Positions 10,193 through 61,374 of a DNA stretch of 64,000 nt are shown piece after piece. The translations under genes and the position numbers were made by a program. Where the stretch lies: the IMG/VR virus record IMGVR_UViG_3300045988_130630. One strand, given 5' to 3'. The notes beneath the pieces are model-generated. The model was not told where the DNA came from. It did no database searches and worked only from the letters and a program-made list of their open reading frames with translations. Within the stretch, counting starts at the first letter, position 1. Each line of letters opens with the position of its first letter. The DNA is from a virus.

Positions 10193-11455
10193 TTACATAT
10201 GTTCAGCTAATGCCGCAATTTTAGAACGATGAATTTGTTTTAATTCAATTTCACCATATACATCTGATCCTCTAAATACTTTAGAAGCACGACGCATACC
10301 ATTATTGGCTCCAGCAAAAGCAATATCATCAACTTGGGTTTTATCATCGCCATCAATGATACAAATACCATCTTCACCAATACGCTGCAAGGTCAATTTC
10401 ATAAGCGAAATATCCATATTTTGTGCTTCAGAAATATAAATACCTGCTTTCATTCCAGTAGTGTCATAACCACGGATATCACTTAATGGTAAAAGAACTA
10501 ATTGTTCGTTTTCAATCATGCGCTCAACTGCTAAGCGACCACCAAATTTACTAATTAAAAGATTGCCAATTTGGCTATCAAGTAATTTTTCATCTCGAGT
10601 GCCAGGATAAAAACCTAATTTCGCGGAATTTTTAGTGGCAATTGTATTACAAAATACAATGATTTTATCAATGCGCCCACGTTCAAATTGATTCATTAAA
10701 AATGCTAAACTTAAATAAGTTTTACCTGAACCCGCAGGGCCACGAACCATAGTAATAGTATTATTAATAAGACTATCTGCGAATAAAGCTTGATAAGGGT
10801 CATCTTTCATAGGTTTTACTTTTCCAAATTGAGTAGAATCAAAATTACCAAATGAAATAGGGCGATAACCATCACCAGTATAACATACTTTATCAACGAT
10901 ATTATTATCTTTATCTTTTATAATTAAATATTCATTAATATGTAAATTATAAACATTTTCATATTGGTTAGAATAAAAATCAGCCATTTCCGCATTTGAC
11001 ATTGTAATTTCCACATATCCTTTATATTCATCAATTAATTCTTCATCTATGCTTTGAATATAATCTTTGTCAAAGAAAAGATTTGCCATTGCTTTTAATG
11101 ATAAATCATTAGTGATAAATATGGTATTTGGATGGGCTAATTTAAATTCAATTGCGGTAGATAAAATTTTACTATCATCAGTAATTGGAAGGTTAGAATC
11201 TTCAATTATTTTTAATCCATCTAATTTAAATAGTTGGATAATATAATTATCAGGGTTTTCATTCAATTTATGTAATACTTTACGAGCTGAATATTTAACA
11301 TCAGCATCTTTATTTGATGATGTTTTTATATTTTCTAACTCTTTTAAAGTAATAGAAGATATAACAGGTGTATATTCTTCCTCTTGGAGAAATGTATCAA
11401 CCGCCATCAGCAAACTACAAGTATCATAAAATTTATACATCTTCGTACTCATCAT
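10193..11455 (-). CDS. phoH: PhoH-like ATPase with N-terminal PIN domain
   Basis: Walker A motif GPAGSGKT. PhoH-family C-terminal region. N-terminal PIN-like acidic residues. 420 aa. A terminator hairpin follows at 10155-10190. Confidence 0.8.
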   Translation of the reverse strand: MMSTKMYKFYDTCSLLMAVDTFLQEEEYTPVISSITLKELENIKTSSNKDADVKYSARKVLHKLNENPDNYIIQLFKLDGLKIIEDSNLPITDDSKILSTAIEFKLAHPNTIFITNDLSLKAMANLFFDKDYIQSIDEELIDEYKGYVEITMSNAEMADFYSNQYENVYNLHINEYLIIKDKDNNIVDKVCYTGDGYRPISFGNFDSTQFGKVKPMKDDPYQALFADSLINNTITMVRGPAGSGKTYLSLAFLMNQFERGRIDKIIVFCNTIATKNSAKLGFYPGTRDEKLLDSQIGNLLISKFGGRLAVERMIENEQLVLLPLSDIRGYDTTGMKAGIYISEAQNMDISLMKLTLQRIGEDGICIIDGDDKTQVDDIAFAGANNGMRRASKVFRGSDVYGEIELKQIHRSKIAALAEHM

Positions 11456-15274: not shown

Positions 15275-15312
15275 AAAATAGACACTATGAAATAATCATA
15301 GTGTCTACTTAA
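15275..15312 (-). terminator. rho-independent terminator after the flotillin gene
   Basis: tagacactatg...catagtgtcta hairpin followed by T8. Confidence 0.55.
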
Positions 15313-15313
15313 A

Positions 15314-16699
15314 TTACTTATTCAATGCCTTTGTAAGCATCTCTTTGATGTCGATGCCATTTTCAGACATTGCTTCAATGACCTGGTTTGCGGAACCCAT
15401 AACATCCTTTACAAGACGAGCAGAGTTTCCATCGCCATACTGGACGATCTTATCCACATTGGTAAGAGGGGCTGCCGCATTTGCCACGATTTGAGGCATT
15501 GCATTGAAATACATTTCAATGATAGAAGCTTCACCCATCTTCTTTTGTGCTTCTGCTTTCTTGTCGATTGCTGTAGCTTCGGCTTCACCAACAGCCGCAA
15601 TACCAGCAGCTTTCTGTTCGGCTGCGAACTTTTCTGCTTCAGCGCGAGCACGCATAGCTTTTGCTTCCTGCTCGATCTCATAAGCCTTAGCTTCAGCATC
15701 CTTCTGACGACGAATCAGGTCTGCTTCAGCCGCCTTTTCCGCAGCATACTTATCAGCATCAGCCTGCTTACGAACCAATGCAGTCAGTTCGTATTCCTTA
15801 AGCTCGATTTCTTTCTGCTTCAGTTCAGCTTCACGCTCAGCCTTTGCGATATTCGCGTTAGTTGCCGCAACATCCTTGAGCTTACGCTGATTTTCAGACT
15901 CAATACCAGCAGCCGCTTCTGCCTGAGCTTTCTTGGTATCAGCTTCCTGCTTCAACTGAGCCTGCTTAATAGCAAGATCGTTATTGCGGATTGCGATTTC
16001 CTCAGCGGCCTTAACCTTAGCGTCATTAGACTGCTTAGCATTTTCCGCACGAGCGACCTCAATCTCACGTTCCGCATTGGACTTAGCAATTGCCGCGTTC
16101 TTGCTAATCTGAGCGACATTATCAATACCGAGGTTAGTGATAACATCATTATCATCAGAGAAGTTCTGAACGTTAAAGGTAATCAGCTCAAGACCATAAC
16201 GTGCCAGATCAGGAACTGCATTCTCCTGGACTTTCTCACTAAACAACTTACGATCGCTAACCATATCAGTCAACTTCATCTGACCGACGATCTCACGAAT
16301 ATTACCTTCAAGAAGGTCGTTAATCTTACGAGAAATTTCATCACGGCCTACGTTAAGGAAGTTCTGAGCGGCGAGCGCAATCATTTCAGGATCTCTACCC
16401 ACACGAACAGAAACCGTAGAATCAACACGAACGTTAATGTATTCGGCAGTAGGGACCGCAGATCCAGTCTTTACATCAATTTGGATAGCTCCGAGAGCAA
16501 GCTTATCCAAACGTTCGAAGAAAGGAATCTTCAAGCCAGCTTTACCAACAAGAATTCGAGGTTTCTTATGGACACCACTGATGATATAAGCCATATCAGG
16601 CGGAGCCTTTACATAACCATTGAGGAAAATGAAAATTACCAGTAGCGCGATAAGAACTACAGGAATCGCCGGAAGGATAAATGAAATAATAGCGGGCAT
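15314..16699 (-). CDS. flotillin / SPFH (band-7) domain protein
   Basis: N-terminal TM segment, then SPFH domain (GAIQIDVKTGSAVPTAEYINVRVDSTVSVRVG). C-terminal Ala/Glu/Lys-rich coiled coil (flotillin-like). 461 aa. GC is visibly higher than neighbouring genes. A terminator hairpin follows. Confidence 0.8.
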   Translation of the reverse strand: MPAIISFILPAIPVVLIALLVIFIFLNGYVKAPPDMAYIISGVHKKPRILVGKAGLKIPFFERLDKLALGAIQIDVKTGSAVPTAEYINVRVDSTVSVRVGRDPEMIALAAQNFLNVGRDEISRKINDLLEGNIREIVGQMKLTDMVSDRKLFSEKVQENAVPDLARYGLELITFNVQNFSDDNDVITNLGIDNVAQISKNAAIAKSNAEREIEVARAENAKQSNDAKVKAAEEIAIRNNDLAIKQAQLKQEADTKKAQAEAAAGIESENQRKLKDVAATNANIAKAEREAELKQKEIELKEYELTALVRKQADADKYAAEKAAEADLIRRQKDAEAKAYEIEQEAKAMRARAEAEKFAAEQKAAGIAAVGEAEATAIDKKAEAQKKMGEASIIEMYFNAMPQIVANAAAPLTNVDKIVQYGDGNSARLVKDVMGSANQVIEAMSENGIDIKEMLTKALNK

Positions 16700-16725
16700 A
16701 AATAATTCTCCTTATTTATTTAATT

Positions 16726-16989
16726 TTAAATTTTATACTTATATTTGAATAATGCTTCAATAGCATCATCAATCGAATTATAGTATCCATTATGTTCAAA
16801 TTCTCCATCTTCATCCCATAAAAAAGAGATTTCTACACCTAATGGACCTTGTTCCAATTTTTCTTTTACTTCTTTGTAAATTGCTTCTTCCATTTGTCTT
16901 GTTATTAATTTTTCCCAATCTTCATAGGACATTTTTCCAGTAATGAGTTTTTTTGTTAAATCATTACCTTTATAATCATAAAGTGCCAT
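16726..16989 (-). CDS. hypothetical protein (87 aa)
   Basis: ORF only. Confidence 0.3.
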   Translation of the reverse strand: MALYDYKGNDLTKKLITGKMSYEDWEKLITRQMEEAIYKEVKEKLEQGPLGVEISFLWDEDGEFEHNGYYNSIDDAIEALFKYKYKI

Positions 16990-16999
16990 TTAATTTTCC

Positions 17000-17560
17000 T
17001 CATTCATCAAGAAATGATTTACATTCCTCAACTTTGGCTTTCATAGCATCAATGATTACATCAAGATTAATTGGATAGCCATGATGAGAATCAACACCTA
17101 CATGATACATATAAGGTCGATCTTCAAAGAAGTTAGTGGTTTGATGAGTATGACCGTAAAGATTCAAAGTCATTTGATGAAGATTTTCTCTTTCAAGATT
17201 GCCAGTCATACAAGGGAAATGGGTCATAAAGAAATGGTATTTACGATAATTTAGCATAATCGCCCAATCCATTTCAACAACATTAGGCAAATCTGCGTAA
17301 AGTTTCTGCCGAGTTGCTGTATCATGGTTGCCAAATACAATATGAAATTTGCCTTTAAGACGTTTAACATATTCAATATTAGAAGGTTCTCCAAGCATTA
17401 AATCACCAAGAATATAAACATCATCTTCATCAGAAACGATGCTATTCCATTTCTCAACATAATCTTCATTCATTTCTTCAATTGAAGAATAACCGCGAGC
17501 TTTCCAAATAAATTCTCGATCATGTCCAAAGTGCATATCACTGGTTAAAAAGATTGCCAT
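17000..17560 (-). CDS. metallophosphoesterase (calcineurin-like)
   Basis: DMHFGHD, GDLMLGE, GNHD and GHTH motifs. 186 aa. Overlaps the upstream kinase ORF by 16 nt. Confidence 0.7.
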   Translation of the reverse strand: MAIFLTSDMHFGHDREFIWKARGYSSIEEMNEDYVEKWNSIVSDEDDVYILGDLMLGEPSNIEYVKRLKGKFHIVFGNHDTATRQKLYADLPNVVEMDWAIMLNYRKYHFFMTHFPCMTGNLERENLHQMTLNLYGHTHQTTNFFEDRPYMYHVGVDSHHGYPINLDVIIDAMKAKVEECKSFLDE

Positions 17561-18075
17561 GTATGAATCACTTCTCCTTTTTCATTAACCTCTTGGATAA
17601 GGTTATATTTAATATATTCTTTAAAAGTGGGAGGAGTAAAAGAATTTGCCATACTCCGAATTACTTCTTCTGGAACCTGCGCTCGACCATCACGCTGTTT
17701 ATTGCGCTCAATACAAACTTCAACAGGAACATTAAAATAAATAATATTCACATTAAGATTTGCATATCCTTTTGCGTTAATTGCTTTAAGAAGTTTCTTG
17801 CGAGAGCCGGGTCCAAGATGCGTAGCATCTGCATACACATCATCATAGTCTCTTAAAGAAAGAGTAATTGCTTCAACAAAAGCGTGCCATACGCTTTCTT
17901 CTTTGGCAAAATAACTTTCATCATCATTTAACATTTGAAAACGAATTGCATCACGAGAAACAACACAACCACATTGAGGCCAACGATTTTTAAGGAACGT
18001 GCTTTTGCCCGATGCTGGCACTCCGGACATAATCCAAAGATTCTTTTGCTTCATCTTTATACACCCCATTCTCAA
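17545..18075 (-). CDS. P-loop nucleotide/polynucleotide kinase-like protein
   Basis: Walker A motif GVPASGKST. AAA_33/Pnk-like size (176 aa). Fused in operon with the metallophosphoesterase. This resembles a split Pnkp with kinase and phosphoesterase on separate ORFs. Confidence 0.55.
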   Translation of the reverse strand: MRMGCIKMKQKNLWIMSGVPASGKSTFLKNRWPQCGCVVSRDAIRFQMLNDDESYFAKEESVWHAFVEAITLSLRDYDDVYADATHLGPGSRKKLLKAINAKGYANLNVNIIYFNVPVEVCIERNKQRDGRAQVPEEVIRSMANSFTPPTFKEYIKYNLIQEVNEKGEVIHTWQSF

Positions 18076-18274
18076 AATTTTCTTTAAACTCTTCTACTTC
18101 TTCTGGAGTTCTACATTCGATATGATTTACTTCTTCTTTGCAATAAATACAATACAACTTTTTACGATGAAATTTACCATGTTGAAGACTTACTCGACGA
18201 GATAAAGGAATTCCTTTTCGTCCACAATTCATACAGTAAAAATCATGGTTTTCATAAGAGGCCATTTGTATCAC
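17990..18274 (-). CDS. Zn-ribbon protein (94 aa)
   Basis: CMNCGRK...CIYCKEE motif. Confidence 0.3.
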   Translation of the reverse strand: MIQMASYENHDFYCMNCGRKGIPLSRRVSLQHGKFHRKKLYCIYCKEEVNHIECRTPEEVEEFKENFENGVYKDEAKESLDYVRSASIGQKHVP

Positions 18275-18477
18275 TCCTTTGATCTTGAATGAGAAGGAAT
18301 TGCAATATTAATAAAAATCTTAATGACAAACATCTGCCAATAAGTAATGCTTGGAAAACAAAACCAAGGAATAAGAGCGGTATTCCAAATAAATAGCATA
18401 ATAGCTACTTCAATGAACATAAAAGCTACACTTGCGACTGCCCAAGAAATATCATCATAATCGTTCATTTTTATCAA
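18271..18477 (-). CDS. small membrane protein (68 aa)
   Basis: Hydrophobic. Has a promoter copy upstream. Confidence 0.3.
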   Translation of the reverse strand: MIKMNDYDDISWAVASVAFMFIEVAIMLFIWNTALIPWFCFPSITYWQMFVIKIFINIAIPSHSRSKE

Positions 18478-18480
18478 TTC

Positions 18481-18539
18481 CTTTCTTAACCTTATATATA
18501 TATTATATATTATTTTTTATAAAAAATCAATAAAGATCT
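18481..18539 (-). promoter_or_regulatory. phage promoter copy
   Basis: tatatatattatatattattttttataaaaaatcaat. Reverse complement: TTGATT-N17-TATAAT plus the AAGG leader. Confidence 0.55.
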
Positions 18540-18818
18540 TTATACTTCCTTTAAATGATTTTCGCATTCTTCAGCATCATATTCAACAGTTAAATTTGTA
18601 GCATCAAGATAACCACCATCATAGTAAAGTATATCGTGTTTAACAGTAGCATTTTTATAAATTTCTTCCTCGTTAGTATCTTTTACAATTTCAAAAAGAT
18701 CACATAAAAATCTACAAGCAGATTCAATGGTGTCAAATTCAAGAGCTTTATCATCCCAACAGAGTGGATTAACACCCTCTTTTGTTTCATAAATATGATA
18801 TTTCATACCTCTAACCAT
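18540..18818 (-). CDS. hypothetical protein (92 aa)
   Basis: ORF only. Confidence 0.3.
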   Translation of the reverse strand: MVRGMKYHIYETKEGVNPLCWDDKALEFDTIESACRFLCDLFEIVKDTNEEEIYKNATVKHDILYYDGGYLDATNLTVEYDAEECENHLKEV

Positions 18819-18829
18819 TATTTTTCTCC

Positions 18830-19549
18830 TTACATAGTAAATTCAATAGTCTCGAATGTATCAAGATCAATAAGACAAGTTTTTCCAGTAGCAAAAGAAC
18901 CATTATCAATATCGCACTTATGTCCATCGCAATACCAAAAATGATTCATATTTTCCAAATCAAAATCTTTATAGCTTTTACCTACTGCAATATAAGGATC
19001 ATAATTAGGCATCAGTAGAAAAGGCGTATGGCCATGAATACAGAAAGTGCGGTCCGCGGGCGAACCTTCGGGCCACGGATCATAGAAATGATCTCGACTC
19101 CAAATTAAATTATAAGAATTAGGACTATCGCCAAGAGTATAACCGGCATGAGAAAGAAGAATAATTTGATTATTCTTATTCACATGGGTTTTTTGCAGAG
19201 GAAGTTTAGCAAGTTCACGATACCATCCAGGATTAGCATGTTCTCCAATTTGCCAATCTTCAAATGTTTTTGCTCCACTATTATTACAAAGAAGAGCATA
19301 TGCTCGACTAAAATTTTCATCTTTAAGATAATCTTTCATAGCTTCAAATAGCATATCTTCATGATTACCTTTAAGATAAATAACTCTTTTATCTGCAAGA
19401 GCGTCTTTAATAATTTCCCAACCATTATTTCCACGGTCCGCGCAATCACCCAGACAATAAAGAGTATCAGTCGGATCAAGATATTTCATAATTTGATCCC
19501 AAAGGGGCTTCATACCATGAATATCACTAACCGCATATGTTTTATTCAT
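18830..19549 (-). CDS. PPP-family Ser/Thr (lambda-like) protein phosphatase
   Basis: DIHG, GDCADRG and GNHE motifs. 239 aa. Confidence 0.7.
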   Translation of the reverse strand: MNKTYAVSDIHGMKPLWDQIMKYLDPTDTLYCLGDCADRGNNGWEIIKDALADKRVIYLKGNHEDMLFEAMKDYLKDENFSRAYALLCNNSGAKTFEDWQIGEHANPGWYRELAKLPLQKTHVNKNNQIILLSHAGYTLGDSPNSYNLIWSRDHFYDPWPEGSPADRTFCIHGHTPFLLMPNYDPYIAVGKSYKDFDLENMNHFWYCDGHKCDIDNGSFATGKTCLIDLDTFETIEFTM

Positions 19550-19560
19550 AAAATATCAAT

Positions 19561-19620
19561 CCTTTTTTAATTTATATATATATTATAATATATTTTTATA
19601 AAAAAATCAAGAGTGAGAAA
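19561..19620 (-). promoter_or_regulatory. phage promoter copy
   Basis: Same motif. Confidence 0.55.
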
Positions 19621-19908
19621 TTATCCCACTCTTGTAAGCTTCATAAATAGATTACAAATGTTTACTCCTAAGCAACTTGCTAAAATCCAAATGTTCCAAT
19701 ATAGCATTTTATCAATGTCTTTATACTTTTTAACAAAAGTGCATTGAATCCACTGGATAAAGCAAAAACACCAAATGGCAAAACAAGCCCAAAACAAAGC
19801 TAAAAACAAATAATACATTTAATTTCCCTCTCTTTAAATAAAAATGATAATTATTGGGCTAACTGAGAAAATCAATACTAAATAATTTTAAAATAATATT
19901 GAAAGGAT

Positions 19909-20634
19909 GTGGTTTATTTGAAAATTGATTTAACAAATAAACAATGTGAAAATTTTAAAGTTATAAATCGAAATATTGAAAAAAAAGGTAAAAATGTTTG
20001 GTGGAATTGTCAATGTAAATGTGGTAAAATGTTTACAGCAACAACTACTGATATTAATAGAGGCATTATTAAATCTTGCGGTTGTATGAAATCTGAATTA
20101 TTAAGCAAAGCTCATCTACAAGATTTAACAGGAAAAACATTTGGAGAGTTATACGTAATTCGTAGAAACAAAGAAGCTCAAATTAATGGGCATAAAGCTA
20201 CAACTATGTATGATTGTCAATGTTCTTGTGGTAATATTATTACTGTAGAAAGAGGTAAGTTAATATCAAGAGGTCAAAAATCTTGTGGATGTAAAAATTC
20301 TATTGGGGAGTTAAATATTAACAAATTATTAACTGATAATAACATAAATTATATTTCTCAATATACAAATTAGAGCTTAAAAACTCAAAACAACGGTTTT
20401 TTAAGATTTGATTTTGCTATACTTGATAAAGAAAATAATGTTATTCGTTTAATTGAATTTGATGGTCCACAACACACTAAAACAGTTGAGTATTTTAATA
20501 AAACAGATTTATTAAAAGAAGTCCAAGCAAGAGATGAATTAAAAAATAATTATGCAAAAAATAATAATATCCCTTTAGTAAGAATTCCTTATTATAAAAG
20601 AGATACTATTAAAATTGAAGAATTATTAGGGGAT
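19909..20634 (+). CDS. Zn-ribbon repeat plus DUF559/Vsr-like PD-(D/E)XK nuclease (homing-endonuclease-like), 1 in-frame TAG
   Basis: The only clear plus-strand gene. CxxC repeats, then a TAG at 20371-20373. The frame continues as LRFDFAILD...IEFDGPQH...PLVRIPY (DUF559-like). Paralogous to 24352-25079 and 26659-27452. Confidence 0.5.
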
Positions 20635-20640
20635 CAGTTT

Positions 20641-52986: not shown

Positions 52987-54234
52987 TTAGCCGATGGTGA
53001 CAGCATAAGTCTCGCCAGCATCAATAGAAGCAGGCTGATAAACATATACATCATATTTAGCCGCAGTATAACCATTAGCACCTTCAACATCAACTTGAGT
53101 GCCCTGTTTTACGAATAGAGCAGTAACATCAGCATTGAGTGCGCTAGGCATAAGAACCTTAGTAATCTTGCGACCAGCAGGAACGGCAACAATAACTTTC
53201 TTCGCGCCAGCACCAGCACCAAAAGTAGTGAGAGCGCCAGTACCACTAGCCTGTTTATGCGCAAGGGCGCGAATATTGACAGAGTTTAGAGCCATATCAG
53301 CACTGGACATGGGACCCCAGAACATATAACGGACACCAGTTAGAGTTTTGGAATTTGCAGTAGCACTACCAGCTTTAATCTTACCTTCAGGATAAGGATT
53401 ACCAAGATTAGTCTTAGGAACCGCACCCTCATTATAGGTAGCCTTGGCGGTAATCTTTTTGGAAGTGGCCTCAGCAACAACATTCTCAAAAGAACCAGTT
53501 GCAGTGGACTTACTATCAGCAACACCAGTACAATTGACTTCCCAAGTTTGAGCAGTGATACCAGTAGCAGGACCATAGGTATAATTACCAGTAGACAGAG
53601 CTGCAGTATAAGTCAAATTTTTCTTAGTGCCAATTTCAAAAGTACCAAAACCGCCTTCGGCTGTAAAAGATACAGCAGGATTAGACTTAGAAGGATTGGC
53701 CTCCTAAGCCATTAAAGAAGAGAGTACCTATTCAACATTCTTACCCTTAGCAGCAAATTTAGCAGAGCCAGAGGGCTGAGCAAGAGTACCAATGGCAACA
53801 GTATAAGTAATATCATCATCAAAATACACATTATCAGCACGATAATTGCCATCAAAAGCGGCCCAATTAGCACCATTATAGAAATACGCAGTACGAGAAG
53901 TTTTACCTTCAACAAACGCATTTTCAACAACAGCCATATCTCCCTGAACAGGGGTGGCAATTGTTGCTAACATATCGGCATCAGTCTTACCTTCAGTTAG
54001 AGTTAAGACAGAAACTTTATCACGATTGCTATTAATAATAGATTTAATAGCATTCTCATCGACACCGGAGTAACTAAGTTCGTTCCAAGCTTTAGTACCA
54101 TCACCAATCTTAATTTTACCAGTGTCAACTTCAATACCCATTTCACCTTTTAACAGCACAGGGTTTTTTTCAACCCAAGTGGCTGCTTCATCATTGCGGA
54201 GTTGAATACGGGTTTTTAAAGTATTTCCAGCCAT
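52987..54234 (-). CDS. structural protein with the N-terminal anchor domain (2 in-frame TAG)
   Basis: MAGNTLKTRIQLRNDEAATWVEKNPVLLKGEMGIEVDTGKIKIGDGTKAWNEL, then ...KNVE*VLSSLMA*EANPS... joining to ORF 52987-53616. TAA stop. Confidence 0.55.
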
Positions 54235-56261: not shown

Positions 56262-58300
56262 ATAATTGTTGTATGCAGTTGATAAAGTATCTAACTATGT
56301 TTTAAAACTCGCGTCACCTGATATTACTTTAGTGTTATTTCCTAAAGCTGTTGCTATTGCATTAAACCAAACTACCAAGCGCAATGGGTTTGTATCATTA
56401 ATAGTAGTAATTGAACTGTTTAAATAAGTATTTATATATCCTGCAAAAGTATTTGCTTCACTTCTGGAATAATCTTTCCAAGTAAACGTGGGCCACCAAA
56501 CTGCATAATAAGTTATATTAGATGTTCCAGCAGAAATTGAAGGGGTTGCTCCCTTTTTATAAGTCGCAGTTTTTGCTGAAGATGATGTAGACCATCCTTT
56601 AAAAATATAATTAGACTTTGTTGGGAAATTAGATCCATTTATATTGAAAGAAGAATTGGTATTAACCGTCTATGATCCAGGTCCACCAGAACCGCCATTT
56701 GCATTATAAGTCACAGTAATTGTATTTCTTTTCCAAACTGCATAAAAAGTTGTTGAACCACTTACAGACACAGAACTTCCTGCGCTATAGCCAGAAGTAG
56801 CAGATGAAGAAGTACTCCATCCTTGGAAAGTATAATCAGTACGAGTGGGAACGGAAGCCATTGTAGCAGTCATGGAATCAGCATAGACATAATTAGTAGA
56901 CCAAACAGTATTAGTACCATCATTTCTATTAAAAGTTATTGTATATTGTCTATAATAATTATACTGCCAAGGTATAGAATATGTACCACTACTGCTCCAA
57001 GCTGCATTTACATACCAATAGTAAGTAGTGCTTGCTGACGCTGTATGTTCAATTTTAGTATCATATCCAGTTCCTGCTCCATCATCATCTGTTTTTAATG
57101 CTGTTCCACTAACAGCACTTGTTCTATTAGTTCCTGAACCAGCTGATAAAAGTGAAGAACTTAAATGACTATAATAATCAGGAGTTTTAGAATTACTGGT
57201 TGTTTTAAAAACTAATTTTCCAGCATAACTTGGTGTTGTTACTGTGATATATCCTGCTTTATAGGCCGGTACAGAAGTAGTACTACTTGTTCCACTAGTG
57301 CCACTGCCTATAGTATACATATTAATTGGAGTCATCCAAGAACTTATTGATTCAAAATAAAAATAAAGTTGTCCTGAAAAAGCAGCAGGATTACTCCAAG
57401 GAGCCACCGTTATTCTATAAGTTGTATTAGCTGTTACAGAAAATTGAGTTATTTTAAAATGACCATTTCCTCCACTCTAATCATCAGAGGTTAAATAATT
57501 TGTTATTGCCTAATATCCATTAGAAGCGCTTGAATTTAGTCCTATTGAATTAGCATATCCTATAGTTCCATAATCATCAAAACTACTTCCAGAGGCGTAA
57601 GCTGTAAATAATCCATTTGAGCTGGGGGTATAATCAATATATCCAATTCCATAAGAAGATAAATTATAATCTACATAAGTATTAACAGCTCCACTATAAT
57701 TACCTAAATTTTGTAAATACCATCCGGTTGGAGCTTCTGTATAAAAGAAAACTATATAAGGATGTCTTGAACTGTGATTGGTACAAACGGAATCTGTTCC
57801 ATCATAATTTCCATTTTGTGCCTGTTCTACGCATTTTGACCAAGTGCTATGATAAACATAACCCTAATAAGTATACCCACTAATAGTAGGAGCCGTAATA
57901 CTTGAAGAAGAAGTGGAAGTTTCATAGCCCATATAATCTCCAGCAGTTAAATTATAGCAATCCCAATAATAATCACCACTAGCAGGAGGATCAGGGTCAG
58001 GATCGGTTCCTCCACCAGAATCTTCATCAGTCCAAGCAGTTCCTGTTCCAGAAGCTCCATTGTGCCAATCGTTTGCTGTATAATAGTCTACTTCCCAAAC
58101 ATATTCATATCTTGTACCAGGAGTTAGCCCTGAGATTCGAACCCAAGGAGCCCCAGTTGTTGAAGGTCCAGTATCTGAAGTTCCATCGTCCAAGCGGACA
58201 TATAATCTTCTACTAACATTATCTGAGCTTATTCCACTTGCTTCAAAAATTAATGAAGTAGTACTACTAGTCGTGCAATCTACAGAAATAGCCATTTTAT
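56262..58300 (-). CDS. large adhesin-like structural protein with Listeria-Bacteroides (flg_new) repeats (several in-frame TAG)
   Basis: AAGGAGG RBS then MAISVDCTT... The frame continues through TAGs (at about 57864, 57475, 56670 and 56300) into ORF 56670-57407. It contains YTFQGWSTSSSATSGYSAGSSVSVSGSTTFYAVWK and YIFKGWSTSSSAKT...ITYYAVW repeats. Confidence 0.45.
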
Positions 58301-58813
58301 TTCCTCCTTTTATCTTAAAAATTTCTAAAAGCATTTTTGAATTGCGGTTTTCGGTCTTTGCGCTTGATGCCGGTCGGACCACATTAACCGCCCTTATTTA
58401 AGCAAACAAAAATGCTCTTAAATTTTGTTATCATGTTCTTTTACTCCGCAAACGCTAACCCGTAGGTTGCCTTACGCTTCCTTCCACCATCAAAGAACAA
58501 TCAAACTCCATTTAAGAGCATTTCCTCGGTTTGTTTTCAGTATTCAATTTGGTTAGATTTAAATAGGAAATCTTACTTATTCCGCACCGATTAGTATTAA
58601 AATTAACAGTAGTGCCAAATCACCTTTAATATAAATATTCCTTACCTATTCTTAATCACTCTTTCGTTGTGATTAACGTCTTTTCTTCAGCCTGTTAGGA
58701 AAAGAAACCTACCGTTTTAAATAAACAACGCCGTCGCCATCTACGACCCTGCCACTTACTCAGGTACGATAAGCAGTTTTTGCGATTACTATAAAGTATA
58801 CTGCCAAATACTT

Positions 58814-59243: not shown

Positions 59244-59477
59244 TTTTTTATTTGAGGGTTTTAATTAGGTTAACCCACAACCTCCGATAGTGTGTCTACT
59301 GGACCAAGGAAATACCCGATCGCCGCATTTCGCTCTTTAAAAGATGGACGCTTCTAATCCTACTTCCTATCGTATAAAAGGACTTATCAATGGCTTTTAT
59401 ACATATTGCCTTTATTATCTTTATAAACAAATTAGCATTACCCAGTGCTACCGCGAGGAGGTTTTGTTTTTAGCACC

Positions 59478-59550
59478 GCAGAGGAAGTGGGAGTCGAACC
59501 CACACCCAGTGATTTAGAGTCACTTGACCTAGCCGTTAGCCGATTCCTCG
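59478..59550 (-). tRNA. suppressor tRNA with anticodon CUA (reads UAG); class I, discriminator G73, CCA not encoded
   Basis: CGAGGAA TC GGCT AACGGCTA GGTC A AGTGA CUCUAAA TCACT GGGTG GTGGG TTCGACT CCCAC TTCCTCT G. Anticodon stem AGTGA/TCACT 5/5 and loop C-U-CUA-A-A. G73, a weak 1:72 pair and U35 are compatible with a Gln-type origin. Confidence 0.6.
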
Positions 59551-59825
59551 TAACTCCTTAATTCAACTTACGGAGTTTTCGCTTCATCTTATTAATGAGA
59601 CGCTGATTCATAACTTCACCATGGGAATACAACTTTGCAATACGATTTTCATAATGTTCTTTAGTGCGACAAATCATAATTTTTCTCCTTAAATTGAATT
59701 TATGGTTCGGAGAGGGTTATCTGCGTCATCTAGACCCAATTTTTTCATTCATTATATATTCTTTCAGAGTAGCAAATTCTTAATTAAATATATAACTTAG
59801 CAGAACTCCGATGGCACGGTCGGCT

Positions 59826-59997
59826 GGACTCGAACCAGCAGATGCAGGAGTCAGGGCTCAAAAGTTGGACTTGCACCAACATTCTCGGTTTTATAGGACC
59901 GGAAGCCTACTAACAGAACTTGTATAATACTACTTAACCCCGTCATATTATATAACCCATTTAACTGATTTTGAGAAAGTCCTGTGCCTTACCATTT
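59826..59997 (-). tRNA. tRNA-Gln-like gene with a short (about 110-nt) intervening sequence
   Basis: 5' part ACGGTCG TC GCC AAAATGGTAA GGC A CAGGA CUUU... 3' part ...GAC TCCTG CATCT GCTGG TTCGAGT CCAGC CGACCGT G CCA. Acceptor 7/7 and anticodon stem 5/5 pair across the insert. The joined loop CUUUGAC would give anticodon UUG. Confidence 0.4.
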
Positions 59998-60273
59998 TGG
60001 CGACGACCGTATAAAACAAGACACCAAAGAATTTCAATCAATTCATTTCATCTATTTGTCGATTAATTCTCTCTTACCCCAAATAGACTACACCTTCGAC
60101 AGGTAATCAAAAGTTATTGATAAAACAATATCTCTGTTATCTTCTATTATAGAAAAGAAAATTCGCAGTTTGTGGTGTCTTTGATATATTTAAAACACGA
60201 ACGCTGTGCTTAACCATTACACTAATTACAGCTGATTATTGGAATCGAACCAATCCTGCGTTCGGTGGTACGG

Positions 60274-60549: not shown

Positions 60550-60615
60550 TTATCAATTCCTTTCTTAACTTTCTATATATATTATATTATATTTTTTATA
60601 AAAAATCAAAAAAGT
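60550..60615 (-). promoter_or_regulatory. phage promoter copy
   Basis: Same motif. Leader AGAAAGTTAAGAAAGGAATTGATAAAAAAATG. Confidence 0.55.
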
Positions 60616-60689
60616 TATTTCAAACTAGACACGTTAGAAAACATAATTTCAAGTTATGTGCGTTAACCAATTTCGCCAAAACCCCAATT

Positions 60690-60900
60690 GGAGTTTACAG
60701 GATTTGAACCCGTATACCTTTCTAATGAAAGAATTGCTGTGTGTGTCTAAATGGTCCGAGTGGAGCGACTCAAACGCTCGGCCTCCTGAACCCTAGTGGC
60801 AACAATGAGATTCGAACTCATAACAGCTATTAACTGACCTCGGGAGCGACCCTCAGACATTACCATTCTGTCATCTTGCCAAATCAGGCGTTCTATCAAC
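60690..60900 (-). tRNA. two or three tRNA-like sequences (one class II, about 60812-60895) not fully resolved
   Basis: T-arm signatures GGATTTGAACCC (60706), GAGATTCGAACTCAT (60816) and ATGAG-TTCGAAT-CTCAT with acceptor GGCAAGA/TGTTGCC. Anticodons could not be assigned confidently by hand. Confidence 0.3.
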
Positions 60901-61284
60901 TGAACTACACCCGGAAATAAACTATATTTTTTATTTTAAACTAAATCAATTTCATCTAAAATAAAATTTTGTTCCTTTTTACAATGAACGCAATACATTG
61001 TTTTTCGATGTTTCTTTCCTTTGTAAGAAAATCTTTTAAAATTCTTAACTTTAGGAGCGGTCATTTGTAAATGGCAAACAGGACAATGAAAATACCTTAA
61101 TTGAAATTTCATTATTTATACCTCTCAATCAAGACGATTTTTTAAATCACAATCAAGCATCCTATTAATTAAATTATATTTAAAAATACAGTTAAGGTCC
61201 TGCACCACACATCCGATCTTTGTTCCCCACATATAGGAGTGGGTATGGCCTTTAGGCAGAATCGTATTTGTTATTAACTGCCCA

Positions 61285-61359
61285 TGGTGCCAAGAGGTAG
61301 AGTCGAACTACCATGACGAAATTATCAGTTTCGCATACTAACCATTATATGATCTCGGC
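61285..61359 (-). tRNA. tRNA-Ile(GAU)
   Basis: GCCGAGA TC ATAT AATGGTTAG TATG CGAAA CUGAUAA TTTCG ... GGTAG TTCGACT CTACC TCTTGGC A CCA. Confidence 0.65.
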
Positions 61360-61374
61360 AAAACAAGACTAAAT

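Follow-up and report, generated by a model that had tools for sequence, protein, structure and literature searches.

A tRNA-shaped RNA nested in the anticodon loop of a phage tRNA-Gln(UUG) gene, and how it might be removed

The stretch of viral DNA considered here, 64,000 nucleotides (nt) of the IMG/VR record IMGVR_UViG_3300045988_130630, contains a tRNA-Gln(UUG) gene with an encoded CCA end (59812-60010, minus strand), which is split between U35 and G36 of its anticodon loop by an insert of 123 nt (59853-59975). This insert is itself a member of a new, covariation-supported structured RNA family. We give even chances to the reading that the split tRNA-Gln is functional, with its tRNA-shaped insert being excised at the insert's own ends and the anticodon loop then being ligated. 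Positions refer to the whole stretch (the window), and L-numbers designate loci found in metagenomes.

Anatomy of the split gene

The window has a G+C content of about 33%, and its minus strand bears all annotated tRNAs and nearly all long open reading frames (ORFs). On this strand, direct reading, the intron mode of ARAGORN and covariation with the 3' exon place the 5' exon at 59976-60010 (ACGGUCG UC GCC-AAAAUGGUAA-GGC A CAGGA CUUU), where it comprises the acceptor 5' strand, the D-arm, the 5' strand of the anticodon stem and the loop nucleotides C32, U33, U34 and U35. The 3' exon (59812-59852, same strand; GAC UCCUG CAUCU GCUGG-UUCGAGU-CCAGC CGACCGU G CCA) continues with G36, A37 and C38 and contributes the 3' strand of the anticodon stem, the variable loop, the T-arm, the acceptor 3' strand, G73 and the encoded CCA. 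A preliminary description of this locus had recognized a tRNA-Gln(UUG) gene interrupted in its anticodon loop, which is borne out both by ARAGORN in intron mode and by excision in silico; the interval it gave (59826-59997) was too short at both ends, and the insert, put at about 110 nt, is in fact 123 nt long.

The stems of the spliced tRNA-Gln pair 7/7, 3/3, 5/5 and 5/5, including the 7/7 of the acceptor and the 5/5 of the anticodon stem that had been read correctly before. When the insert is removed in silico, default ARAGORN calls a 76-nt tRNA-Gln(UUG) with a standard cloverleaf and a 7-nt anticodon loop. A cut between U35 and G36 joins GGACUUU to GACUCC (in the longer form, AAGGCACAGGACTTT to GACTCCTGCATCTGC) and gives the loop CUUUGAC with the anticodon UUG, exactly as had been predicted; moreover, the entire anticodon arm, CAGGA-CUUUGAC-UCCUG, matches 66 uninterrupted phage tRNA-Gln(UUG) genes exactly, loop included. 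The T-arm is identical to that of an intact tRNA-Gln in L002, and the exons show G73, G10 and a D-arm, GCC..GGUAAGGCA, typical of bacterial tRNA-Gln.

Standard software does not readily see this gene. ARAGORN with introns allowed detects it, with a junction that is one base off and gives the loop CUUUCAC and the label 'Glu UUC'. The preliminary description hinged on the locus holding no contiguous tRNA, and none was found on either strand by default ARAGORN or by the Rfam tRNA model, even at E<=10; a blastn search of the region 59700-60100 against the phage collection gave no match. The observation as a whole is confirmed, and the interpretation then attached to it, an unusual and perhaps phage-encoded tRNA-processing pathway, is partly supported.

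The insert as a tRNA-shaped RNA

The structure of the insert was derived from an alignment of 26 distinct copies (A2), and a covariance model built on the family, R1, scores the copy in the window at 131 bits (E 2.7e-31). Its five helices are paired in 97.3% of alignment cells, and 27 of 31 pairs have changed on both sides. By comparison, structures slid along the alignment reach only 38-45% pairing, and none of 500 shuffles attains the observed values.

In the order of the minus strand, helix 1 is an acceptor stem of 7 base pairs (bp), formed by CUCAAAA (59969-59975), the first base of which is the 5' junction with U35 at position -1, and UUUUGAG (59857-59863), which is followed by a 4-nt tail, C-CCU (59853-59856), and then by the 3' junction; it is paired 7/7 in 26/26 copies, and all seven pairs covary. 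Helix 2, a D-stem of 4 bp between AGUU (59963-59966) and GGCU (59904-59907), is 100% paired and has two compensatory pairs (AG/CU to GU/AC). It encloses helix 3, a D-loop hairpin of 10 bp (59920-59955; 97.7% paired, 9/10 pairs compensatory) with a conserved loop of 15-16 nt, UGAYGGG(G)UUAAGUAG, flanked on its two sides by blocks that are invariant in alignments A1 and A2, i.e. AAAUGGG (59956-59962) and GUUCUGUUAGUA (59908-59919). Helix 4, at the position of an anticodon arm (59885-59902), is a variable hairpin with a stem of 4-5 bp and a loop of 6-9 nt that is not of the U33 type; it is paired in 87.7% of cells, with compensatory changes in 5/5 pairs. Helix 5 is a T-arm of 5 bp, GUUGG-UGCAAGU-CCAAC (59864-59880), which abuts the acceptor 3' strand directly; it is 100% paired, 4/5 of its pairs are compensatory and its loop UGCAAGU is invariant in the 26 copies.

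The connectors between these helices (2/1/4-5/0 nt) have the lengths found in a tRNA cloverleaf, and even the unpaired positions that correspond to tRNA positions 26 and 44 covary (G.U / A.C / U.G). Once about 50 D-loop positions are deleted, R1 aligns genuine tRNAs end to end, as seen with the suppressor, Val and Cys tRNAs of the window and with seven tRNAs of T4. The insert departs from a canonical tRNA by these roughly 50 extra D-loop nt and by its non-decoding, variable 'anticodon' loop of 6-9 nt; RF00005 does not match it at E<=10, default ARAGORN is silent and no Rfam family is found at the gathering threshold or at E<=10, also when 241 nt are searched. This RNA of 121-123 nt represents a new and well-supported family of structured RNAs.

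Nested and free-standing members of the family

A gapped pattern for tRNA-Gln with an insert of 110-140 nt, run on IMG/VR, retrieved 18 split tRNA-Gln genes of three sequence types (A, B and C), on contigs that span 65-219 kilobases (kb), mostly more than 110 kb. With a pattern of the two invariant blocks, 53 metagenome loci were found, about 47 of them genuine. GTDB genomes gave one match only, in a 'Mollicutes MAG' (metagenome-assembled genome); the contig concerned, of 164 kb, has the same split gene and probably comes from a phage. Since GTDB yields this single contig, the family is essentially restricted to phages. Across viral and metagenome contigs, the split tRNA-Gln architecture recurs in 27 distinct, phylogenetically related variants.

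The element, of 119-123 nt, is seen in three contexts. It is nested between U35 and G36 in many different tRNA-Gln bodies (at least seven divergent ones), it is nested between U36 and A37 in one tRNA-Lys(UUU) in L084, and it stands free, i.e. without exons, in L062, L075, L082, L093, L110, L106/L060 and probably L102. Free copies mostly lie within tRNA arrays, twice just upstream of an intact tRNA-Gln (L106/L060 and L082). No further R1 member was found in the window, and the other loci have one each; the insert of the tRNA-Pro gene described below is not a member. The free copy of L106 (1186-1307) is internally near-identical to the nested copies of L052 (4660-4781) and L071, and differs in its acceptor stem and tail (AUUC versus GCCA); it follows a promoter-like upstream sequence that it shares with the nested tRNA-Gln of L004 (3953-4072). 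This likeness points to a recent switch between the free and the nested state.

An uninterrupted allele with the same exons was not found in IMG/VR. The split form is thus fixed in its clade, and there is no presence/absence polymorphism that would fix the junction at the DNA level.

A common rule for the boundaries of nested inserts

Nested inserts start at their own acceptor nucleotide +1 and end 4 nt past their acceptor stem. This rule holds in 27/27 nested Gln variants and in the tRNA-Lys of L084; excision according to it leads default ARAGORN to call Gln(UUG) in all 27 variants and Lys(UUU) in L084, and gives no tRNA with free-standing copies or with the decayed nested copy of L076. The base at -1 of the insert is U in every copy of the family and a pyrimidine in all other cases mentioned below. 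Nested tails read CCCU (window), UCCU, CUCU, UCCA, CCCA or GCCA, with C74 present in 13/14 nested tail types and both C74 and C75 in the copy of the window, whereas free copies have tails without CC (AUCA, AUUA, AAUU and AUUC).

The same rule is obeyed by unrelated, smaller tRNA-shaped inserts of 57-123 nt, which interrupt other tRNAs at loop positions from 32/33 to 36/37; the smallest (57-65 nt) consist of acceptor, D and T arms only. They emerged when the fetched loci were scanned with ARAGORN in intron mode, which also strung neighbouring tRNAs together into many false 'introns'; these were filtered out by requiring a terminal 7-bp stem that abuts a T-like hairpin. Because this filter is circular with respect to the rule, the independent evidence lies in the restored 7-nt loops and in the match between anticodon and tRNA body. 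Nine such cases were tested, and rule-based excision gave standard tRNAs in 9/9. The interrupted tRNAs are Pro(UGG) in the window (34/35), Ile(UAU) in L021 (32/33) and in L061 (36/37), Leu(CAA) in L052 and L091 (34/35), Lys(UUU) in L075 (34/35), Gly(UCC) in L076 (35/36), Glu(UUC) in L109 (36/37) and Asp(GUC) in L110 (35/36). For Asp, the rule gives the canonical loop CUGUCAC, whereas ARAGORN's own junction had led to a call of His.

The case in the window is a tRNA-Pro(UGG) gene (60752-60914, minus strand) split between U34 and G35 by an 87-nt tRNA-like RNA (60794-60880), which Rfam scores as a tRNA with 35 bits. The 7-bp acceptor stem of this insert contains one mismatch and is followed by the tail ACUA; excision of the insert restores the tRNA-Pro, and a conserved copy of the gene is present in L015 and in L068. 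The boundary rule is general and holds in the tRNA-Gln of the window and in ten other host-tRNA contexts.

Selection on the split gene

Helices that the insert holds apart have nevertheless changed in concert. Compensatory pairs that bridge the insert number five in the outer acceptor stem and three in the anticodon stem; the window has U5-A68 where its relatives have U.G or C-G. The exon helices are paired in 98.7% of cells, compared with 32-44% in slid controls, and the seven loop bases CUUU/GAC are invariant. In L076, where the nested insert has the tail UUUU, the 3' exon has partly decayed as well and no tRNA results. Because the exon stems co-vary across the insert, the split gene must be under selection, and this pattern of sequence change suggests that it is functional. 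Taken together, exon covariation, the invariant loop and the missing uninterrupted allele argue indirectly against both a pseudogene and a mere scaffold.

These data bear on the main alternative, namely that a mobile or recombined tRNA-like RNA gene has inactivated the tRNA-Gln, so that only the inner RNA is released and the exon halves are discarded without any ligation. In favour of this, the same element does stand free, immediately followed in some cases by an intact tRNA-Gln (L106/L060 and L082), and the free L106 copy is internally near-identical to the nested ones of L052 and L071. Moreover, exon decay does occur: the nested copy of L076 (4452-4572), on a 188-kb contig with about 300x assembly coverage, has the tail UUUU as well as a weakened T-arm and acceptor stem in its 3' exon, gives no tRNA upon excision and is possibly a decaying split gene. 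Against it, the exon halves keep a perfect cloverleaf with insert-spanning compensation across at least seven divergent tRNA-Gln bodies and 27 variants, and just those seven bases that make up CUUUGAC are invariant; excision yields standard tRNAs in nine more cases with other host tRNAs; and no uninterrupted allele with the same exons turned up in IMG/VR. We regard inactivation as unlikely.

A possible maturation pathway

Because the 5' end of the insert and its 3' end at position 76 coincide with the two junctions, and because the family is also free-standing, the enzymes that process tRNA ends in the host, at least RNase P, are implicated. Likewise, boundaries that are set by the ends of the insert, independently of the host tRNA and of the position in the loop, point to an excision machinery that recognizes tRNA shape. 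Starting from the anatomy of the gene, the structure of the insert, the family in its three contexts, the junction rule, the co-evolution of the exons and the ligase and end-healing genes described below, the following sequence of events can be envisaged.

The precursor would fold as one tRNA inside another. Host RNase P would treat the insert as a pre-tRNA and cut at its first acceptor nucleotide, leaving U35 with a 3'-OH, and a second endonuclease would cut right after position 76 of the insert and thereby free G36. The nicked tRNA-Gln would be held together by its own acceptor, anticodon and tertiary pairings, its ends being healed, if needed, by phage kinase and phosphoesterases, until an ATP-dependent RNA ligase seals the nick to give the canonical loop CUUUGAC. 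The freed RNA of 123 nt would probably be stable and have a function of its own, since copies with an identical core exist as free-standing genes.

Bacterial RNase P relies on the acceptor/T stack, on a pyrimidine, preferably U, at position -1 and on pairing of C74/C75 with RNase P RNA. The insert offers a 12-bp stack (7 + 5, without a linker), U at -1 as well as C74/C75, and cleavage by RNase P at insert position +1 is our best inference from these features. RNase Z usually cuts after N73, and CCA is an anti-determinant for it. After such a cut in a nested copy, the 3' exon would begin with three surplus bases, and a block by C74/C75 would fit the finding that CC is confined to nested copies; free copies could be cut after N73 and then receive CCA.

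These features also matter for the idea that nothing is excised at all, i.e. that the 199-nt chimera is the final product, in which the tRNA-Gln halves serve as a scaffold that presents the inner RNA. Foreign RNAs are known to be stabilized when they are placed in a tRNA anticodon loop, as in engineered tRNA-scaffold RNAs, and conservation of the outer CCA and cloverleaf would be in line with such a role. Yet a scaffold does not need invariant loop bases that rebuild the canonical loops of Gln, Lys, Asp and other tRNAs, an insert with RNase P substrate determinants and U at -1 would be expected to be cut in any bacterium, and the same inner RNA exists in free-standing genes that have no scaffold. 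A permanent chimera is therefore quite improbable.

RNA-repair genes in the window

The preliminary description had raised the possibility that a kinase, a phosphoesterase and ligases encoded nearby participate, and proteins of these kinds are indeed present: a P-loop polynucleotide-kinase-like protein, several metallophosphoesterases, an ATP-dependent RNA ligase and a DNA ligase. The candidate sealing enzyme is an ATP-dependent RNA ligase of 461 amino acids (22959-24344, minus strand; Pfam PF09414), the N-terminal part of which matches TIGR02306 (DraRnl type) below the family cutoff. Candidates for end healing are a P-loop kinase (17545-18075, minus strand; AAA_33 at 6.8e-22, bacterial Pnkp kinase domain at 1e-13, below the family cutoff) and an adjoining metallophosphoesterase (17000-17560, minus strand; Metallophos_2 at 1.1e-11). 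A nucleotidyltransferase of the RlaP family (27735-28541, minus strand; PF10127 at 8.1e-05, just under the cutoff) is a candidate accessory factor; members of this family add 1-2 nucleoside monophosphates to damaged RNA 3' ends (PMC12776372).

The window also encodes two more metallophosphoesterases, a cyclic-phosphate-processing REC domain, NADAR and weak Macro domains and the DNA ligase. Much of this set forms a dense island of RNA-repair type on the minus strand (about 15300-35300), comprising an SPFH/band-7 protein, the Pnkp-like kinase, three metallophosphoesterases, NADAR, weak Macro domains, the RNA ligase, RlaP, a cREC_REC domain, a major-vault-protein-like protein (shoulder and repeat domains) and a DUF2828/DUF7788 protein, the last of which found no match in a PDB sequence search. 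Outside this island, a PIN-PhoH2-like protein is encoded at 10193-11455. With this set of enzymes, either end chemistry could be handled. Homologues of the RNA ligase are present on 15/15 IMG/VR contigs with a split tRNA-Gln of type A or B.

Several points weigh against excision and ligation as outlined here. We infer splicing itself, as well as every enzymatic step, from sequence. The RNA ligase was not detected on type C contigs by a search that finds close relatives only; the matches of ligase, kinase and RlaP are at the domain level and below family-specific cutoffs; and a PDB sequence search with the RNA ligase gave no match. Sealing could just as well be the work of a host ligase, for example RtcB. 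For the likely hosts, we know of no bacterial endonuclease with an established cut exactly behind position 76 of a CCA-bearing tRNA, and the tails of nested inserts are not always CCA (CCCU in the window; ACUA, ACUG and ACAA elsewhere). The relatedness of the sequence variants means that counts such as the 27 nested variants overstate the number of independent events. Finally, thermodynamic folding, one of the checks that the preliminary description had proposed, gave no signal for the precursor (z = -0.43) or for the insert alone (z = -0.15). Thermodynamic prediction alone would miss the fold of the insert. In the D region, the fold of minimum free energy is not the one that covariation supports.

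The same enzymes would also suit an insert that processes itself, either as a miniature group I-like intron or as a self-cleaving ribozyme whose products are healed and sealed by phage enzymes or RtcB. Kinase, phosphoesterases and the cyclic-phosphate-processing domain could act on ribozyme-type ends (2',3'-cyclic phosphate and 5'-OH), the 5' exon ends in U, the family has conserved unpaired blocks (AAAUGGG, UGAYGGGUUAAGUAG and GUUCUGUUAGUA) and a theta/HDV-like ribozyme candidate adjoins at 59423-59477. On the other hand, no Rfam ribozyme or intron family matches at E<=10 in the 241-nt search, and the supported fold is a cloverleaf rather than a P3-P9 core (RF00028 is not matched). The last base of the insert is U or A in the 27 nested variants and never G, and this, together with the length of 123 nt, upholds the earlier statement that the insert is not a group I intron. 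The D-loop module is equally conserved in free copies that have no exons to splice, and inserts of 57-65 nt that follow the same boundary rule leave no room for a ribozyme. We consider self-processing very improbable.

Still more doubtful, to the point of being highly implausible, is an intron of archaeal or eukaryal type, with a bulge-helix-bulge motif and a splicing endonuclease. A protein-dependent logic would fit it, and an ORF for a PD-(D/E)XK nuclease lies in the tRNA cluster (38322-38747). This ORF, however, is the neighbour of a probable group I intron, a place at which one would expect a homing endonuclease, and no splicing-endonuclease domain was found among the roughly 50 window ORFs scanned with Pfam. 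The preliminary description had suggested a search for the motif itself, and the junctions do not form it: they flank a 7-bp helix and a 4-nt tail in a 4 x 7-nt internal loop, and the two 3-nt bulges 4 bp apart are absent. The position, moreover, is 35/36 (32/33 to 36/37 in other host tRNAs) and not 37/38. For the insert as such, we have rejected the group I, self-cleaving ribozyme and bulge-helix-bulge readings for the respective reasons given above.

Relation to known systems

A tRNA-shaped module that sits inside a longer transcript and directs cleavage by RNase P and at the 3' end at its own boundaries is the principle of tRNA punctuation in mitochondrial polycistrons and of the MALAT1 mascRNA. 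There, the flanks are not re-ligated, whereas here they are two tRNA halves that need joining. Ligation within an anticodon loop is known from T4, where Pnkp and Rnl1 reseal the broken anticodon loop of a tRNA in answer to host damage; this system likewise combines a phage kinase-phosphatase with a ligase, but it is not part of tRNA gene expression. T4 also has rnaC and rnaD (species 1 and 2 RNAs), which resemble our free copies as stable-RNA-like genes within phage tRNA arrays; as homologues of the family they were rejected, with rnaC reaching only 14 bits against R1.

We know of no enzyme-dependent tRNA splicing pathway in bacteria or phages. The proposed logic, in which a folded pre-tRNA is cut twice in its anticodon region and an RNA ligase then joins the ends, is that of archaeal and eukaryal introns, which are served by EndA/Sen and by RtcB or Trl1. 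Unlike there, recognition would be by the tRNA shape of the intron, positions vary and the setting is that of bacteria and phages. In bacteria, anticodon loops of tRNAs harbour group I introns, as in the cyanobacterial tRNA-Leu(UAA), tRNA-fMet, the Azoarcus tRNA-Ile and in Patescibacteria (PMC13011429). These share with our case an anticodon-loop insert in a bacterial-type tRNA and a 5' exon that ends in U, but the insert here has 123 nt and a cloverleaf fold, and lacks a terminal G and a match to RF00028. YrlA (RF02553) is, like the insert, a tRNA-mimicking non-coding RNA linked to RNA-repair genes; YrlA, however, is permuted, whereas the insert ends in an acceptor stem and RF02553 gives no match over it.

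The closest precedent comes from Lak megaphages, for which Devoto et al. (2019, Nat Microbiol) reported tRNAs with 'enigmatic', highly conserved introns and proposed no mechanism (PMC6784885); the insert of a Lak tRNA-Thr(UGU) was noted there to 'itself encode a possible tRNA' (PMC6784885). As here, these are gut phages with alternative coding, with conserved inserts in anticodon loops and a junction that software places off by one base. Differences are phage size (540 kb for Lak, 110-220 kb here) and that the Lak paper gives no structure family, junction rule or free copies; the likeness drawn here is one of description. In the literature searched for nested, permuted or tRNA-like introns of phages, Devoto et al. 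was the only report found, with no follow-up, and the paper on recoded gut phages and their theta ribozymes says nothing of introns. The present analysis extends that report by an RNA family with a secondary structure, its free and nested states, a boundary rule and a proposal for a pathway.

Wider implications

The feature described here belongs to a rarely noted and unexplained kind of phage tRNA intron, and it has a realistic chance of standing for a new route of splicing. More tentatively, and on balance with somewhat less confidence than we place in excision itself, we suggest a kind of intron that has not been described before: tRNA-shaped, removed by the enzymes of tRNA end maturation (RNase P at the 5' junction) instead of a ribozyme or a bulge-helix-bulge endonuclease, and followed by sealing of the loop by an RNA ligase that is probably encoded by the phage, possibly with an origin as a mobile element at the RNA level. 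Concerning this origin, a ligase may have joined a mature CCA-tailed RNA to the ends of a cleaved anticodon loop, and the product would then have been turned back into DNA; such a scenario is suggested by nested copies carrying N-CCA at the 3' boundary and free genes being without an encoded CCA. The inserts may then be RNA-level mobile elements that were made by the tRNA-repair ligase of the phage.

If this kind of intron is real, RNase P would be a splicing endonuclease, and enzyme-dependent tRNA splicing would extend beyond archaea and eukaryotes. The sets of RNA ligase, kinase, phosphoesterase and RlaP in large phages would have a biosynthetic role beside repair, the 'enigmatic' introns of Lak phage tRNAs would be explained and the maturation of key tRNAs would depend on a phage enzyme, which might provide a timing switch in phages with suppressor tRNAs. 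Host tRNAs so far include Gln(UUG), Lys(UUU), Glu(UUC), Asp, Pro, Leu, Ile and Gly. Since standard finders miss such genes or mis-assign them (Glu for Gln; His for Asp), phage tRNA inventories and analyses of codon use are biased.

Neighbouring RNAs and signs of recoding

Other odd tRNA genes, to which the preliminary description had alluded, were indeed found within the window. A tRNA-Leu(UAA) gene (39564-40000, minus strand) has a 349-nt insert between U34 and A35, the site classically occupied by group I introns. This insert, which has a terminal G and a core motif resembling AGACUACAAC, is a probable group I intron, although Rfam gives no group I match. An insert in a tRNA with a CUA anticodon in L091 has a similar end. 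Immediately downstream of the tRNA-Leu(UAA) lies a RAGATH-33 RNA (39422-39550, minus strand; 127 bits), with the ORF of the PD-(D/E)XK nuclease nearby.

Two RNAs with a permuted tRNA-like order are encoded close to the split tRNA-Gln. One, a YrlA-like Y RNA candidate (61354-61463, minus strand; 32 bits, below gathering), lies 1.4 kb from the split gene and abuts a tRNA-Ile; it consists of a T-arm, the acceptor 3' strand GCUCCCG, GCCA, a U, the acceptor 5' strand CGGGAGU and a D-arm, and is closed by a stem of its own 5' and 3' ends. The other (60610-60725, minus strand; Rfam tRNA 24.5 bits, below threshold), just downstream of the tRNA-Pro, has a T-arm with an acceptor 3' strand, AUU, an acceptor 5' strand, a D-arm and the stem-loop CAUAA-CUUGAAA-UUAUG. 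A further tRNA-like RNA (63594-63666, minus strand) is free-standing, with an encoded GCCA and a non-standard anticodon arm, and scores 33 bits against R1; default ARAGORN does not call it, and its D-arm, UA GUUU AAAUGGUA AAAU, resembles that of small nested inserts elsewhere.

A suppressor tRNA(CUA) without an encoded CCA (59478-59550, minus strand) is directly followed by an HDV-F-prausnitzii-like match (59423-59477; 26 bits, below gathering); theta ribozymes of recoded gut phages have been described in this arrangement. Four long minus-strand frames exist only when in-frame TAG codons are read through, namely 47192-48730, 8831-10186, 56262-58397 and 42152-43768 with 10, 8, 5 and 4 TAGs, respectively. 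Partial recoding of TAG would fit these frames and the suppressor tRNA, which is only suggestive in an AT-rich genome. Finally, Mtd_N N-terminal domains are present in two proteins (45540-46634 and 53728-54234, minus strand); major tropism determinant (Mtd) proteins are typical targets of diversity-generating retroelements.

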